Positions 7,430 to 20,285 of a stretch of DNA of 38,166 nucleotides are shown here, in pieces. The stretch comes from Escherichia phage T7: the sequence record MZ375249.1. The stretch is one strand, 5' to 3'. Position 1 is the first letter of the stretch. Each line of letters begins with the position of its first letter. Made by a program: the position numbers and the translations under genes. The notes under the pieces are model-generated. The model worked only from the letters and a program-made list of their open reading frames with translations. It was not told where the DNA came from and did no database searches.

Positions 7430-8011
7430 TGGGACTGTTAGATGGTGAAGCCTGGGAAAAAGAAAACCCGCCAGTACAAGCAACTGGGTGTATAGCTTGC
7501 TTAGAGAAAGATGACCGTTATCCACACACCTGTAACAAAGGAGCTAACGATATGACCGAACGTGAACAAGAGATGATCATTAAGTTGATAGACAATAATG
7601 AAGGTCGCCCAGATGATTTGAATGGCTGCGGTATTCTCTGCTCCAATGTCCCTTGCCACCTCTGCCCCGCAAATAACGATCAAAAGATAACCTTAGGTGA
7701 AATCCGAGCGATGGACCCACGTAAACCACATCTGAATAAACCTGAGGTAACTCCTACAGATGACCAGCCTTCCGCTGAGACAATCGAAGGTGTCACTAAG
7801 CCTTCCCACTACATGCTGTTTGACGACATTGAGGCTATCGAAGTGATTGCTCGTTCAATGACCGTTGAGCAGTTCAAGGGATACTGCTTCGGTAACATCT
7901 TAAAGTACAGACTACGTGCTGGTAAGAAGTCAGAGTTAGCGTACTTAGAGAAAGACCTAGCGAAAGCAGACTTCTATAAAGAACTCTTTGAGAAACATAA
8001 GGATAAATGTT

Positions 8012-9119: not shown

Positions 9120-9539
9120 GTGGAACTGCGGGAGAAAATCCTTGAGCGAATCAAGGTGACTTCCTCTGGGTGTTGGGAGTGGCAGGGCGCTACGAACAAT
9201 AAAGGGTACGGGCAGGTGTGGTGCAGCAATACCGGAAAGGTTGTCTACTGTCATCGCGTAATGTCTAATGCTCCGAAAGGTTCTACCGTCCTGCACTCCT
9301 GTGATAATCCATTATGTTGTAACCCTGAACACCTATCCATAGGAACTCCAAAAGAGAACTCCACTGACATGGTAAATAAGGGTCGCTCACACAAGGGGTA
9401 TAAACTTTCAGACGAAGACGTAATGGCAATCATGGAGTCCAGCGAGTCCAATGTATCCTTAGCTCGCACCTATGGTGTCTCCCAACAGACTATTTGTGAT
9501 ATACGCAAAGGGAGGCGACATGGCAGGTTACGGCGCTAA
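9120..9539 (+). CDS. 2.8: Gene 2.8, HNH endonuclease-like protein (139 aa, GTG start)
   Basis: CHRV...HSCDNPLCCNPEHL...GTPKENSTDMVNKGR motif; paralog of gp7.7. Confidence 0.85.
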   Translation: MELREKILERIKVTSSGCWEWQGATNNKGYGQVWCSNTGKVVYCHRVMSNAPKGSTVLHSCDNPLCCNPEHLSIGTPKENSTDMVNKGRSHKGYKLSDEDVMAIMESSESNVSLARTYGVSQQTICDIRKGRRHGRLRR

Positions 9540-9969
9540 AGGAATCCGAAAGGTTGGAGCGTTTCGCTCTGGCCTAGAGGACAAGGTTTCAAAGCAGTTG
9601 GAATCAAAAGGTATTAAATTCGAGTATGAAGAGTGGAAAGTGCCTTATGTAATTCCGGCGAGCAATCACACTTACACTCCAGACTTCTTACTTCCAAACG
9701 GTATATTCGTTGAGACAAAGGGTCTGTGGGAAAGCGATGATAGAAAGAAGCACTTATTAATTAGGGAGCAGCACCCCGAGCTAGACATCCGTATTGTCTT
9801 CTCAAGCTCACGTACTAAGTTATACAAAGGTTCTCCAACGTCTTATGGAGAGTTCTGCGAAAAGCATGGTATTAAGTTCGCTGATAAACTGATACCTGCT
9901 GAGTGGATAAAGGAACCCAAGAAGGAGGTCCCCTTTGATAGATTAAAAAGGAAAGGAGGAAAGAAATAA
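9520..9969 (+). CDS. 3: Gene 3, endonuclease I (Holliday junction resolvase, 149 aa)
   Basis: MAGYGAKGIRKVGAFRSGLEDKVSKQLESKGIKFEYEEWKVPYVIP...; overlaps the 2.8 end as in T7. Confidence 0.95.
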   Translation: MAGYGAKGIRKVGAFRSGLEDKVSKQLESKGIKFEYEEWKVPYVIPASNHTYTPDFLLPNGIFVETKGLWESDDRKKHLLIREQHPELDIRIVFSSSRTKLYKGSPTSYGEFCEKHGIKFADKLIPAEWIKEPKKEVPFDRLKRKGGKK

Positions 9970-10424
9970 TGGCTCGTGTACAGTTTAAACAACGTGAATC
10001 TACTGACGCAATCTTTGTTCACTGCTCGGCTACCAAGCCAAGTCAGAATGTTGGTGTCCGTGAGATTCGCCAGTGGCACAAAGAGCAGGGTTGGCTCGAT
10101 GTGGGATACCACTTTATCATCAAGCGAGACGGTACTGTGGAGGCAGGACGAGATGAGATGGCTGTAGGCTCTCACGCTAAGGGTTACAACCACAACTCTA
10201 TCGGCGTCTGCCTTGTTGGTGGTATCGACGATAAAGGTAAGTTCGACGCTAACTTTACGCCAGCCCAAATGCAATCCCTTCGCTCACTGCTTGTCACACT
10301 GCTGGCTAAGTACGAAGGCGCTGTGCTTCGCGCCCATCATGAGGTGGCGCCGAAGGCTTGCCCTTCGTTCGACCTTAAGCGTTGGTGGGAGAAGAACGAA
10401 CTGGTCACTTCTGACCGTGGATAA
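9969..10424 (+). CDS. 3.5: Gene 3.5, lysozyme (N-acetylmuramoyl-L-alanine amidase, T7 RNAP inhibitor; 151 aa)
   Basis: MARVQFKQRESTDAIFVHCSATKPSQNVGVREIRQWHKEQGWLDVGYHFIIKRDGTVEAGR... Confidence 0.97.
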   Translation: MARVQFKQRESTDAIFVHCSATKPSQNVGVREIRQWHKEQGWLDVGYHFIIKRDGTVEAGRDEMAVGSHAKGYNHNSIGVCLVGGIDDKGKFDANFTPAQMQSLRSLLVTLLAKYEGAVLRAHHEVAPKACPSFDLKRWWEKNELVTSDRG

Positions 10425-12294
<1,870 letters not shown>

Positions 12295-13125: not shown

Positions 13126-15240
13126 ATGATCGTTTCTGACATCGAAGCTAACGCCCTCTTAGAGAGCGTCACTAAGTTCCACTGCGGGGTTATCTACGAC
13201 TACTCCACCGCTGAGTACGTAAGCTACCGTCCGAGTGACTTCGGTGCGTATCTGGATGCGCTGGAAGCCGAGGTTGCACGAGGCGGTCTTATTGTGTTCC
13301 ACAACGGTCACAAGTATGACGTTCCTGCATTGACCAAACTGGCAAAGTTGCAATTGAACCGAGAGTTCCACCTTCCTCGTGAGAACTGTATTGACACCCT
13401 TGTGTTGTCACGTTTGATTCATTCCAACCTCAAGGACACCGATATGGGTCTTCTGCGTTCCGGCAAGTTGCCCGGAAAACGCTTTGGGTCTCACGCTTTG
13501 GAGGCGTGGGGTTATCGCTTAGGCGAGATGAAGGGTGAATACAAAGACGACTTTAAGCGTATGCTTGAAGAGCAGGGTGAAGAATACGTTGACGGAATGG
13601 AGTGGTGGAACTTCAACGAAGAGATGATGGACTATAACGTTCAGGACGTTGTGGTAACTAAAGCTCTCCTTGAGAAGCTACTCTCTGACAAACATTACTT
13701 CCCTCCTGAGATTGACTTTACGGACGTAGGATACACTACGTTCTGGTCAGAATCCCTTGAGGCCGTTGACATTGAACATCGTGCTGCATGGCTGCTCGCT
13801 AAACAAGAGCGCAACGGGTTCCCGTTTGACACAAAAGCAATCGAAGAGTTGTACGTAGAGTTAGCTGCTCGCCGCTCTGAGTTGCTCCGTAAATTGACCG
13901 AAACGTTCGGCTCGTGGTATCAGCCTAAAGGTGGCACTGAGATGTTCTGCCATCCGCGAACAGGTAAGCCACTACCTAAATACCCTCGCATTAAGACACC
14001 TAAAGTTGGTGGTATCTTTAAGAAGCCTAAGAACAAGGCACAGCGAGAAGGCCGTGAGCCTTGCGAACTTGATACCCGCGAGTACGTTGCTGGTGCTCCT
14101 TACACCCCAGTTGAACATGTTGTGTTTAACCCTTCGTCTCGTGACCACATTCAGAAGAAACTCCAAGAGGCTGGGTGGGTCCCGACCAAGTACACCGATA
14201 AGGGTGCTCCTGTGGTGGACGATGAGGTACTCGAAGGAGTACGTGTAGATGACCCTGAGAAGCAAGCCGCTATCGACCTCATTAAAGAGTACTTGATGAT
14301 TCAGAAGCGAATCGGACAGTCTGCTGAGGGAGACACAGCATGGCTTCGTTATGTTGCTGAGGATGGTAAGATTCATGGTTCTGTTAACCCTAATGGAGCA
14401 GTTACGGGTCGTGCGACCCATGCGTTCCCAAACCTTGCGCAAATTCCGGGTGTACGTTCTCCTTATGGAGAGCAGTGTCGCGCTGCTTTTGGCGCTGAGC
14501 ACCATTTGGATGGGATAACTGGTAAGCCTTGGGTTCAGGCTGGCATCGACGCATCCGGTCTTGAGCTACGCTGCTTGGCTCACTTCATGGCTCGCTTTGA
14601 TAACGGCGAGTACGCTCACGAGATTCTTAACGGCGACATCCACACTAAGAACCAGATAGCTGCTGAACTACCTACCCGAGATAACGCTAAGACGTTCATC
14701 TATGGGTTCCTCTATGGTGCTGGTGATGAGAAGATTGGACAGATTGTTGGTGCTGGTAAAGAGCGCGGTAAGGAACTCAAGAAGAAATTCCTTGAGAACA
14801 CCCCCGCGATTGCAGCACTCCGCGAGTCTATCCAACAGACACTTGTCGAGTCCTCTCAATGGGTAGCTGGTGAGCAACAAGTCAAGTGGAAACGCCGCTG
14901 GATTAAAGGTCTGGATGGTCGTAAGGTACACGTTCGTAGTCCTCACGCTGCCTTGAATACCCTACTGCAATCTGCTGGTGCTCTCATCTGCAAACTGTGG
15001 ATTATCAAGACCGAAGAGATGCTCGTAGAGAAAGGCTTGAAGCATGGCTGGGATGGGGACTTTGCGTACATGGCATGGGTACATGATGAAATCCAAGTAG
15101 GCTGCCGTACCGAAGAGATTGCTCAGGTGGTCATTGAGACCGCACAAGAAGCGATGCGCTGGGTTGGAGACCACTGGAACTTCCGGTGTCTTCTGGATAC
15201 CGAAGGTAAGATGGGTCCTAATTGGGCGATTTGCCACTGA
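13126..15240 (+). CDS. 5: Gene 5, DNA polymerase (704 aa)
   Basis: [36 protein letters not shown]...; exonuclease and Pol I family motifs; ends NWAICH. Confidence 0.99.
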
Positions 15241-15285
15241 TACAGGAGGCTACTCCAAAGGCATAAAACTATAGGAGAAATTATT

Positions 15286-15952: not shown

Positions 15953-16841
15953 CCTTAAACAATTCTATGAGTTACGTGAAGGCTGCGACGACAAGGGTAT
16001 CCTTGTGATGGACGGCGACTGGCTGGTCTTCCAAGCTATGAGTGCTGCTGAGTTTGATGCCTCTTGGGAGGAAGAGATTTGGCACCGATGCTGTGACCAC
16101 GCTAAGGCCCGTCAGATTCTTGAGGATTCCATTAAGTCCTACGAGACCCGTAAGAAGGCTTGGGCAGGTGCTCCAATTGTCCTTGCGTTCACCGATAGTG
16201 TTAACTGGCGTAAAGAACTGGTTGACCCGAACTATAAGGCTAACCGTAAGGCCGTGAAGAAACCTGTAGGGTACTTTGAGTTCCTTGATGCTCTCTTTGA
16301 GCGCGAAGAGTTCTATTGCATCCGTGAGCCTATGCTTGAGGGTGATGACGTTATGGGAGTTATTGCTTCCAATCCGTCTGCCTTCGGTGCTCGTAAGGCT
16401 GTAATCATCTCTTGCGATAAGGACTTTAAGACCATCCCTAACTGTGACTTCCTGTGGTGTACCACTGGTAACATCCTGACTCAGACCGAAGAGTCCGCTG
16501 ACTGGTGGCACCTCTTCCAGACCATCAAGGGTGACATCACTGATGGTTACTCAGGGATTGCTGGATGGGGTGATACCGCCGAGGACTTCTTGAATAACCC
16601 GTTCATAACCGAGCCTAAAACGTCTGTGCTTAAGTCCGGTAAGAACAAAGGCCAAGAGGTTACTAAATGGGTTAAACGCGACCCTGAGCCTCATGAGACG
16701 CTTTGGGACTGCATTAAGTCCATTGGCGCGAAGGCTGGTATGACCGAAGAGGATATTATCAAGCAGGGCCAAATGGCTCGAATCCTACGGTTCAACGAGT
16801 ACAACTTTATTGACAAGGAGATTTACCTGTGGAGACCGTAG
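15939..16841 (+). CDS. 6: Gene 6, 5'-3' exonuclease (300 aa)
   Basis: MALLDLKQFYELREGCDDKGILVMDGDWLVFQAMSAAEFD... Confidence 0.97.
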   Translation: MALLDLKQFYELREGCDDKGILVMDGDWLVFQAMSAAEFDASWEEEIWHRCCDHAKARQILEDSIKSYETRKKAWAGAPIVLAFTDSVNWRKELVDPNYKANRKAVKKPVGYFEFLDALFEREEFYCIREPMLEGDDVMGVIASNPSAFGARKAVIISCDKDFKTIPNCDFLWCTTGNILTQTEESADWWHLFQTIKGDITDGYSGIAGWGDTAEDFLNNPFITEPKTSVLKSGKNKGQEVTKWVKRDPEPHETLWDCIKSIGAKAGMTEEDIIKQGQMARILRFNEYNFIDKEIYLWRP

Positions 16842-17969: not shown

Positions 17970-18269
17970 ATGGGTAAGAAAGTTAAGAAGGCCGTGAAGA
18001 AAGTCCCCAAGTCCGTTAAGAAAGTCGTTAAGGAAGGGGCTAGTCCGGTTAAACAGGTTGCTGGCGGTCTAGCTGGTCTGGCTGGTGGTACTGGTGAAGC
18101 ACAGATGGTGGAAGTACCACAAGCTGCCGCACAGATTGTTGACGTACCTGAGAAAGAGGTTTCCACTGAGGACGAAGCACAGACAGAAAGCGGACGCAAG
18201 AAAGCTCGTGCTGGCGGTAAGAAATCCTTGAGTGTAGCCCGTAGCTCCGGTGGCGGTATCAACATTTAA
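17970..18269 (+). CDS. 7.3: Gene 7.3, tail/virion protein (99 aa)
   Basis: MGKKVKKAVKKVPKSVKKVVKEGASPVKQVAGGLAG...; lysine-rich. Confidence 0.9.
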   Translation: MGKKVKKAVKKVPKSVKKVVKEGASPVKQVAGGLAGLAGGTGEAQMVEVPQAAAQIVDVPEKEVSTEDEAQTESGRKKARAGGKKSLSVARSSGGGINI

Positions 18270-18282
18270 TCAGGAGGTTATC

Positions 18283-18675
18283 GTGGAAGACTGCATTGAA
18301 TGGACCGGAGGTGTCAACTCTAAGGGTTATGGTCGTAAGTGGGTTAATGGTAAACTTGTGACTCCACATAGGCACATCTATGAGGAGACATATGGTCCAG
18401 TTCCAACAGGAATTGTGGTGATGCATATCTGCGATAACCCTAGGTGCTATAACATAAAGCACCTTACGCTTGGAACTCCAAAGGATAATTCCGAGGACAT
18501 GGTTACCAAAGGTAGACAGGCTAAAGGAGAGGAACTAAGCAAGAAACTTACAGAGTCAGACGTTCTCGCTATACGCTCTTCAACCTTAAGCCACCGCTCC
18601 TTAGGAGAACTGTATGGAGTCAGTCAATCAACCATAACGCGAATACTACAGCGTAAGACATGGAGACACATTTAA
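18283..18675 (+). CDS. 7.7: Gene 7.7, HNH endonuclease-like protein (130 aa, GTG start)
   Basis: HRHIYE...MHICDNPRCYNIKHLTLGTPKDNSEDMVTKGR motif; paralog of gp2.8. Confidence 0.85.
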   Translation: MEDCIEWTGGVNSKGYGRKWVNGKLVTPHRHIYEETYGPVPTGIVVMHICDNPRCYNIKHLTLGTPKDNSEDMVTKGRQAKGEELSKKLTESDVLAIRSSTLSHRSLGELYGVSQSTITRILQRKTWRHI

Positions 18676-20285
18676 TGGCTGAGAAACGAACAGGACTTGC
18701 GGAGGATGGCGCAAAGTCTGTCTATGAGCGTTTAAAGAACGACCGTGCTCCCTATGAGACACGCGCTCAGAATTGCGCTCAATATACCATCCCATCATTG
18801 TTCCCTAAGGACTCCGATAACGCCTCTACAGATTATCAAACTCCGTGGCAAGCCGTGGGCGCTCGTGGTCTGAACAATCTAGCCTCTAAGCTCATGCTGG
18901 CTCTATTCCCTATGCAGACTTGGATGCGACTTACTATATCTGAATATGAAGCAAAGCAGTTACTGAGCGACCCCGATGGACTCGCTAAGGTCGATGAGGG
19001 CCTCTCGATGGTAGAGCGTATCATCATGAACTACATTGAGTCTAACAGTTACCGCGTGACTCTCTTTGAGGCTCTCAAACAGTTAGTCGTAGCTGGTAAC
19101 GTCCTGCTGTACCTACCGGAACCGGAAGGGTCAAACTATAATCCCATGAAGCTGTACCGATTGTCTTCTTATGTGGTCCAACGAGACGCATTCGGCAACG
19201 TTCTGCAAATGGTGACTCGTGACCAGATAGCTTTTGGTGCTCTCCCTGAGGACATCCGTAAGGCTGTAGAAGGTCAAGGTGGTGAGAAGAAAGCTGATGA
19301 GACAATCGACGTGTACACTCACATCTATCTGGATGAGGACTCAGGTGAATACCTCCGATACGAAGAGGTCGAGGGTATGGAAGTCCAAGGCTCCGATGGG
19401 ACTTATCCTAAAGAGGCTTGCCCATACATCCCGATTCGGATGGTCAGACTAGATGGTGAATCCTACGGTCGTTCGTACATTGAGGAATACTTAGGTGACT
19501 TACGGTCCCTTGAAAATCTCCAAGAGGCTATCGTCAAGATGTCCATGATTAGCTCTAAGGTTATCGGCTTAGTGAATCCTGCTGGTATCACCCAGCCACG
19601 CCGACTGACCAAAGCTCAGACTGGTGACTTCGTTACTGGTCGTCCAGAAGACATCTCGTTCCTCCAACTGGAGAAGCAAGCAGACTTTACTGTAGCTAAA
19701 GCCGTAAGTGACGCTATCGAGGCTCGCCTTTCGTTTGCCTTTATGTTGAACTCTGCGGTTCAGCGTACAGGTGAACGTGTGACCGCCGAAGAGATTCGGT
19801 ATGTAGCTTCTGAACTTGAAGATACTTTAGGTGGTGTCTACTCTATCCTTTCTCAAGAATTACAATTGCCTCTGGTACGAGTGCTCTTGAAGCAACTACA
19901 AGCCACGCAACAGATTCCTGAGTTACCTAAGGAAGCCGTAGAGCCAACCATTAGTACAGGTCTGGAAGCAATTGGTCGAGGACAAGACCTTGATAAGCTG
20001 GAGCGGTGTGTCACTGCGTGGGCTGCACTGGCACCTATGCGGGACGACCCTGATATTAACCTTGCGATGATTAAGTTACGTATTGCCAACGCTATCGGTA
20101 TTGACACTTCTGGTATTCTACTCACCGAAGAACAGAAGCAACAGAAGATGGCCCAACAGTCTATGCAAATGGGTATGGATAATGGTGCTGCTGCGCTGGC
20201 TCAAGGTATGGCTGCACAAGCTACAGCTTCACCTGAGGCTATGGCTGCTGCCGCTGATTCCGTAGGTTTACAGCCGGGAATTTAA
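18675..20285 (+). CDS. 8: Gene 8, head-tail connector (portal) protein (536 aa)
   Basis: MAEKRTGLAEDGAKSVYERLKNDRAPYETRAQNCAQYTIPSLFP... Confidence 0.97.
   Translation: MAEKRTGLAEDGAKSVYERLKNDRAPYETRAQNCAQYTIPSLFPKDSDNASTDYQTPWQAVGARGLNNLASKLMLALFPMQTWMRLTISEYEAKQLLSDPDGLAKVDEGLSMVERIIMNYIESNSYRVTLFEALKQLVVAGNVLLYLPEPEGSNYNPMKLYRLSSYVVQRDAFGNVLQMVTRDQIAFGALPEDIRKAVEGQGGEKKADETIDVYTHIYLDEDSGEYLRYEEVEGMEVQGSDGTYPKEACPYIPIRMVRLDGESYGRSYIEEYLGDLRSLENLQEAIVKMSMISSKVIGLVNPAGITQPRRLTKAQTGDFVTGRPEDISFLQLEKQADFTVAKAVSDAIEARLSFAFMLNSAVQRTGERVTAEEIRYVASELEDTLGGVYSILSQELQLPLVRVLLKQLQATQQIPELPKEAVEPTISTGLEAIGRGQDLDKLERCVTAWAALAPMRDDPDINLAMIKLRIANAIGIDTSGILLTEEQKQQKMAQQSMQMGMDNGAAALAQGMAAQATASPEAMAAAADSVGLQPGI

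Follow-up and report, generated by a model that had tools for sequence, protein, structure and literature searches.

Genes 2.8 and 7.7 in a Reduced T7 Genome

Two short genes of the HNH endonuclease type, 2.8 and 7.7, are found in the stretch of DNA analyzed here (the window), which comprises 38,166 nucleotides of Escherichia phage T7 (MZ375249.1). Gene 2.8 lies between genes 2.5 and 3, with its GTG start directly 3′ of the gene 2.5 stop codon, and gene 7.7 lies between genes 7.3 and 8 (Table 1). Both are 100% identical to their wild-type T7 counterparts. Three longer open reading frames in these regions (18250..18675 for 7.7, 9472..9969 for gene 3, and one beginning at 18660 for gene 8) were rejected in favor of the T7 reference starts, which have proper Shine–Dalgarno sequences; the 7.7 frame from 18250 is a mechanical upstream extension. 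In RefSeq, 2.8 and 7.7 are entered as endonuclease and HNH endonuclease; both, along with 3.8, are handled as homing endonucleases in a 2025 preprint (bioRxiv 10.1101/2025.09.07.674715), so that the earlier note went too far in describing their role as unknown.

Table 1. Features at the 2.8 and 7.7 loci and deletions carried by the window. Deletions are relative to the T7 reference NC_001604 and are given in its numbering.
Feature	Window position	Strand	T7 position (NC_001604)	Details
Gene 2.8	9120..9539	+	9857..10276	GTG start, 139 aa
2.8 3′ end	9508..9539	+		gene 3 Shine–Dalgarno AAGGGAGG at 9508-9515, ATG at 9520; read from the sequence and the T7 annotation
Gene 3	9520..9969	+		divergent tract vs C5 (L003 1000-1455)
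Gene 3.8 remnant	10488..10561	+		first 29 nt and last 45 nt; junction 10514-10516
Shine–Dalgarno AGGAGGT	18272..18278	+		serves 7.7 in T7, gene 8 in Salmonella phage C2
Gene 7.7	18283..18675	+	19848..20240	GTG start, 130 aa
7.7 3′ end	18662..18677	+		GGAG at 18662-18665; TAATG overlap of 7.7 stop with gene 8 start
First ~300 nt of gene 8	18675..18975	+		divergent tract vs Salmonella phage C2
Deletion, genes 0.4 to 0.6			about 1353-1903	
Deletion, gene 1.4 exactly			7608-7763	
Deletion inside gene 3.8			11254-11545	292 bp
Deletion, gene 4.3			13353-13547	
Deletion, gene 5.3	junction 15255..15256		16483-16820	
Deletion, gene 19.5			39429-39608	
Deletion, 18 nt in each terminal repeat	99 and 38123			

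The genome surrounding these genes is a product of laboratory reduction. The whole window aligns end to end with MZ375258 (clone T7_130S) at 99.95% identity and has every deletion junction in common with that record. Furthermore, a 12-kb stretch around 2.8 is 100% identical to several records named "Mutant Escherichia phage T7 clone" (MZ3752xx), and over this stretch the window is wild-type T7 apart from the deletions. The MZ3752xx series stems from CiPGr, a CRISPR/Cas9-driven iterative reduction of the T7 genome, in which pooled guide and repair cassettes were employed over 300 transfers in E. coli MG1655 carrying Cas9 plasmids and clones were picked every 10 transfers (PMC9825161). The window genome is an engineered intermediate of this stochastic, stepwise deletion series, from about transfer 130 of 300.

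Smaller changes are also present. The terminal repeat is 142 nt long rather than 160, as an identical 18-nt segment (GGGTTGGGGATGACCCTT, flanked by two GGGTT repeats) is missing from each of its copies; a G>T change at repeat position 37 is likewise found in both. Relative to wild-type T7, gene 7.3 displays two point changes (window 18006 and 18042), genes 1, 5, 11, and 17 display single changes, and gene 16 displays three; none of the window's point changes falls within 2.8 or 7.7. Elsewhere in the series, gene 2.5 of clone T7_300S (MZ375292, 7886-8464) is annotated 120 nt shorter than in wild type. The DNA of this region aligns to T7 throughout with only point changes, which suggests a premature stop removing the acidic C-terminal tail of this single-stranded DNA-binding protein.

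Family Membership and Predicted Architecture

Homology between 2.8 and 7.7, as the earlier note had proposed, was borne out by pairwise BLASTP, which aligned gp2.8 and gp7.7 at 48% identity over 134 aa (E = 2e-36). The extended motif that the note had described as common to both proteins is exact in gp2.8; in gp7.7 the second NP is replaced by NI (HICDNPRCYNIKHL), and the motif matches once relaxed at this point. The YGVSQ.TI segment is present in both. Both proteins also belong to the HNH family by the gathering cut-off of Pfam HNH_3 (24.8 bits), gp7.7 with 49.6 bits and gp2.8 marginally with 26.1 bits, the latter score being backed by the match of gp2.8 to phrog_59 (HNH endonuclease, E 1e-30). 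The same PHROG is the best for gp7.7 (E 3e-33). Weak Pfam matches were additionally obtained for both proteins to the I-PpoI zinc-loop family and, in their C-termini, to helix-turn-helix entries. Among 5.8 billion proteins searched, gp2.8 had 56 homologues and gp7.7 had 35, most of them encoded on phage-sized contigs; members of the family were counted in 1463 phage records, at many different positions in the genome.

The predicted key residues of gp2.8 are C18, H59, C61, C66, H71, and N80, among which H59 is predicted to serve as the general base, H71 to bind zinc, and N80 to bind metal; the equivalent residues of gp7.7 are C4, H48, C50, C55, H60, and N69. Five positions (H59, C66, H71, L72, and N80 in gp2.8 numbering) are invariant in a 44-sequence alignment, and C18, G29, Y30, H45, R46, C61, N63, N68, P69, D83, and R89 are conserved in at least 90% of its members. 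Neither gp2.8 nor gp7.7 has lost any of the predicted catalytic or zinc-binding residues. The zinc-site spacing H-x-C-x4-C-x4-H is likewise present, with C61, C66, and H71, the predicted zinc ligands, conserved. An AlphaFold model of gp2.8 (mean pLDDT 90) displays N-terminal strands followed by a ββα unit, composed of strands 56-59 and 72-75 and helix 77-86, and then by three C-terminal helices, with a helix-turn-helix predicted at about residues 98-129. The arrangement by which HNH nucleases are recognized, with a His at the end of the first strand and an Asn in the helix of the ββα unit, is found in the modeled positions of H59 and N80 in gp2.8 and is predicted for H48 and N69 in gp7.7.

Searches of PDB sequences with gp2.8 or gp7.7 as single sequences returned chance-level matches only, and the two related enzymes of known structure, I-HmuI and I-PpoI, were reached only by profile searching and fold searching. 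When the gp2.8 model was compared with the PDB using Foldseek, I-HmuI from Bacillus phage SPO1 (PDB 1u3e) was retrieved first with a probability of 1.00, followed by I-PpoI, the His-Cys box enzyme of Physarum (PDB 1a73/1a74); the E-values are modest (1.4e-3 and about 6e-2) and the TM-scores low (0.33-0.42), in part because the protein is elongated and multidomain. Among PDB sequences, the family profile matched the same two enzymes: the alignment with I-HmuI (E 6e-6) spans almost the entire length, and that with I-PpoI (E 5e-4) covers the H..C..C..H..N segment HLCHNTRCHNPLHL...N.

I-HmuI, the top full-length match by both structure and profile, shares the Pfam HNH_3 domain with gp2.8 and gp7.7 and presents its parts in the same order: an N-terminal β-sheet DNA-binding region, the HNH core, and a C-terminal helix-turn-helix. 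I-HmuI differs in being encoded within an intron, 2.8 and 7.7 being free-standing genes, and in having no Cys/His zinc ligands around its catalytic histidine; the sequences are about 18% identical. I-HmuI is known to nick one strand. I-PpoI displays catalytic and zinc-ligand spacing identical to that of gp2.8 and gp7.7, namely HxCxNxxCxNPxHL and then an Asn nine residues past the second His. The I-PpoI residues aligned with H59, C61, C66, H71, and N80 of gp2.8 are His98, Cys100, Cys105, His110, and Asn119. This likeness is confined to a core of roughly 50 residues, however, and I-PpoI differs in having a second zinc site, in being a dimer encoded by a eukaryotic intron, and in lacking a C-terminal helix-turn-helix. 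As judged from the model and alignments, gp2.8 and gp7.7 are predicted to be laid out like I-HmuI and to have a catalytic core braced by zinc in the manner of I-PpoI.

The earlier note regarded 3.8 as the third member of this family and as deleted from the genome. The deletion is confirmed, with 292 bp of the gene missing. Membership stands insofar as wild-type gp3.8, also the product of a free-standing gene, scores 56 bits against Pfam HNH_3, but the relationship is a distant one: BLASTP similarity extends over about 50 aa of the HNH core (E 5e-11 vs gp7.7 and 4e-7 vs gp2.8), and the best PHROG families of gp3.8 are 4578/99 rather than phrog_59. Its core is of the I-HmuI type (DHIDGN...N), without the Cys/His zinc ligands of gp2.8 and gp7.7; the N-terminal CxEW...GYG region is absent, and the C-terminal part is different. 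By sequence, gp3.8 is a distant relative in the same Pfam family, of a different subfamily and architecture. The product of gene 5.3 was considered as a fourth HNH protein and rejected, as it matches the PD-(D/E)XK endonuclease family PDDEXK_5. T7 contains three HNH_3 genes in two subfamilies along with 5.3 as a fourth, unrelated nuclease-like accessory gene, and it is the 3.8-type HNH_3 gene and the PD-(D/E)XK gene that are gone from the window clone.

A separate consequence of the 3.8 deletion concerns the neighboring primase/helicase gene. The start codon of 3.8, which has a strong GGAGGT ribosome-binding site, is brought in frame with gene 4A. The fused open reading frame (10488..12236) encodes a primase/helicase with 16 extra N-terminal residues, predicted to be made alongside the normal 4A and 4B, and GenBank record MZ375258 annotates the longer, 4A-extended frame as primase/helicase. 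The 3.8 deletion of the CiPGr series thus results in an in-frame extension of this gene.

Insertion Junctions and Translation Start Signals

Relatives that lack 2.8 or 7.7 reveal how each gene is placed. In Escherichia phage C5, which has no 2.8, gene 3 starts with a GTG immediately adjacent to the stop codon of gene 2.5. The sequence TAAGTGG is common to T7 and C5; in T7 its GTG starts 2.8, and gene 3 (endonuclease I), which overlaps 2.8 by 20 nt, begins at a new ATG 400 nt later than the C5-type GTG start. At the second locus, Salmonella phage C2 displays 7.3, then TCAGGAGGT, then gene 8, with no 7.7. The GGAG within the 3′ end of 7.7 in T7 is likely to be the Shine–Dalgarno sequence of gene 8. 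The same junctions are also empty of 2.8 in Serratia phage Pila and of 7.7 in Salmonella phage Sal_R1S and Escherichia phage Bas103. Occupied junctions are known as well: Salmonella phage BP12A, a member of another genus (Berlinvirus), has an orthologue of 2.8 between genes 2.5 and 3, again with a 20-nt overlap; at about 73-74% identity to T7, this protein is closer than the products of the flanking genes (61% for gp2.5 and 69% for gp3.5). In Dickeya phage Katbat, gene 8 is directly adjoined by an HNH gene.

The insertion point of 2.8 and of 7.7 is exact, with the stop codon of the preceding gene on one side and an important gene (3 or 8) on the other. Each insert uses the start signals from which gene 3 or 8 is translated in insert-free relatives, and the 3′ end of each appears to supply a new ribosome-binding site for the downstream gene.

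Divergent Tracts beside the Inserts

Divergent tracts were identified beside both inserts by comparisons of two genomes each, which cannot tell which genome is the recombinant: between T7 and C5, gene 3 is about 73% identical, gene 2.5 about 96%, and the start of gene 3.5 96-100%; between T7 and Salmonella phage C2, the left flank up to the 7.7 junction is 94-98% identical, the first 300 nt of gene 8 78-84%, and the sequence further downstream 90-100%. The left edge of the gene 3 mosaic block coincides exactly with the 2.8 insertion point. Across a wider set of records, 113 contain the T7 gene 3 allele at 90% identity or above, as many as carry 2.8, and in all other records gene 3 identity is 80% or less, with the 80-90% band empty. 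The gene 3 and gene 8 tracts are one-sided and begin exactly at the inserts, the trace that co-conversion during homing, their likely origin, would leave; ordinary mosaic recombination, not driven by an endonuclease, could have generated them as well.

Selfish Homing Endonucleases as the Best Explanation

We consider 2.8 and 7.7 to be free-standing, selfish homing-endonuclease genes of one HNH (His-Me finger) subfamily, dispensable in pure culture and incidentally present in this clone, and assign this reading a probability of roughly 0.85. It draws directly on the homology of the two genes, their intact motifs and predicted fold, their presence and absence at the junctions, the divergent tracts, the laboratory origin of the genome, and the loss of 7.7 in a further clone of the series (see below). 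Cleavage activity, target sites, and homing are proposed for gp2.8 and gp7.7 from these features, the literature searched having yielded no cleavage activity, target site, or homing event for either protein.

Each protein is predicted to comprise a small N-terminal β-sheet DNA-binding region, a zinc-stabilized ββα-metal nuclease core (H-x-C-x4-C-x4-H-x8-N), and a C-terminal helix-turn-helix. Homing would begin when T7 co-infects a cell with a relative that is without the endonuclease gene. The enzyme would then recognize a site located at the empty junction (2.5/3 in the case of 2.8 and 7.3/8 in the case of 7.7) or a short distance 3′ of it, and would nick or cut the DNA there. Recombinational repair from the T7 copy would finally transfer the endonuclease gene to the recipient, along with a few hundred bases of gene 3 or gene 8. 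By analogy, 2.8 and 7.7 may share the lifestyle of the free-standing Seg and Mob homing endonucleases of T-even phages. Genes of the Seg/Mob type lie between conserved genes, are patchily distributed among relatives, and have their flanking markers co-converted. Seg proteins possess GIY-YIG nuclease domains, unlike the HNH proteins gp2.8 and gp7.7.

Retention, Dispensability, and Alternative Readings

Retention of 2.8 and 7.7 in an otherwise trimmed genome had been singled out as conspicuous in the earlier note, a view that the history of the clone does not support. T7_300S carries the same deletions as the window and additionally lacks gene 1.7, gene 4.7, and T7 19848-20216, the last of which takes out 7.7, start codon included, except for its final 24 nt, so that the gene 8 ribosome-binding site is spared. 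The product of 7.7 is listed among removable genes in the CiPGr paper (PMC9825161), and in a later, separate T7 chassis/genome-engineering study 7.7 was deleted seamlessly. Whether deletion of both genes is tolerated, a check that had been suggested, is answered by published T7 mutants that lack 2.8 alone, 2.8 and 7.7, or 2.8, 7.7, and 3.8, the triple mutant being viable and forming plaques (bioRxiv 10.1101/2025.09.07.674715). The PhageMaP preprint, consulted for per-gene data, makes no mention of 2.8 or 7.7. Since the window represents an intermediate engineered clone, 7.7 was later lost, and the triple deletion is viable, retention signals no hidden need; as the genome is an engineered intermediate, its retained genes say nothing about natural selection.

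An alternative account of the persistence of 2.8 invokes a constraint in cis, in which deletion of the whole gene damages endonuclease I expression and is selected against; we rate it as somewhat short of an even chance. The gene 3 Shine–Dalgarno sequence AAGGGAGG and ATG lie inside 2.8, and loss of the whole gene may be disfavored because its 3′ end carries these start signals. Consistent with such a constraint, the inner part of 2.8 is present in 113 of 113 matching records (T7 and a few close relatives), including T7 genomes of 35.8-36.5 kb, the most reduced ones, whereas the inner part of 7.7 is present in roughly 94 to 98 T7 records and that of 3.8 in only about 70. Many later CiPGr clones also keep 2.8, but with a CTA>CGT change at codon 72 (L72R) that is absent from the window. 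The altered site, at L005 345-346 in MZ375276 (T7_220S), corresponds to window 9334-9335 and lies inside candidate Cas9 protospacers, and the substitution affects an invariant residue beside the predicted zinc-binding H71. L72R is probably a Cas9-escape mutation that also inactivates gp2.8, in which case 2.8 would have been targeted and would have escaped by mutation rather than deletion. What weakens the constraint in cis is that the escape role of L72R is one that we infer, and that a 2.8 deletion has been made and is viable (bioRxiv 10.1101/2025.09.07.674715). The PCR product of that deletion shrinks from 706 to 400 bp, which implies that part of 2.8, probably the 3′ end, was kept.

It is more doubtful that the two proteins were kept as DNA-binding anti-defense factors that blunt the DNA-break-sensing system GAPS4 and for which nuclease activity is not needed. 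The idea derives from the observations that catalytically dead T7 gp3.8 (H34A) weakens GAPS4 protection and that T7 devoid of 2.8, 7.7, and 3.8 forms smaller plaques and is outcompeted by the wild type only in cells with active GAPS4 (bioRxiv 10.1101/2025.09.07.674715). The DNA-binding modules predicted in the modeled gp2.8 and in gp7.7 may fit such a role. However, gp3.8 was the only one of the three proteins expressed alone in the preprint, and 7.7 was lost later in the same CiPGr series. Moreover, nothing was found showing GAPS4 in the series host, MG1655 with Cas9 plasmids, and an anti-defense benefit could therefore not explain retention in the window clone. An anti-defense role is in any case compatible with 2.8 and 7.7 being homing endonucleases.

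Least of all do the data agree with a recent duplication within T7 that left two decaying, inactive relics, which we hold to be very improbable: 2.8 and 7.7 are T7's only two matches to their family and share 48% identity, but each is closer to its own orthologues from other phages or from metagenomes (72-89% identity) than to the other, phages of other genera have orthologues at the same junctions, no catalytic or zinc-binding residue has been lost from either protein, and the two genes fall into separate clades, each with its own orthologues, in a neighbor-joining tree of 93 family members built from short proteins without bootstrap or other support values. The separate clades favor the view that the two genes came into T7 independently, from one endonuclease family, and not by recent duplication.

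Implications for T7 and Its Relatives

As a discovery, the finding carries little weight, given that 2.8 and 7.7 are already known as HNH nuclease genes, are annotated as such in the T7 reference genome, and have published dispensability. What is modestly added here to the known picture is that the inserts have taken over the start signals of the downstream genes, that divergent tracts are linked to them, and that their zinc motif resembles that of I-PpoI. For the trimming of T7, the last ~30 nt of 2.8 and the last 24 nt of 7.7 should be kept because the ribosome-binding sites of genes 3 and 8 sit there. The sharp identity breaks at both inserts constitute candidate target regions for the proposed homing. 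Beyond the reading of 2.8 and 7.7 as selfish homing endonucleases, it is conceivable, though we think it rather unlikely, that both genes have become entrenched, such that their takeover of the start regions of genes 3 (endonuclease I) and 8 (portal) makes clean loss costly, and that their products perhaps also attenuate DNA-break-sensing defense independently of nuclease activity, as gp3.8 does. If true, entrenchment would explain why 2.8 is kept in all 113 matching records and was hit by L72R instead.
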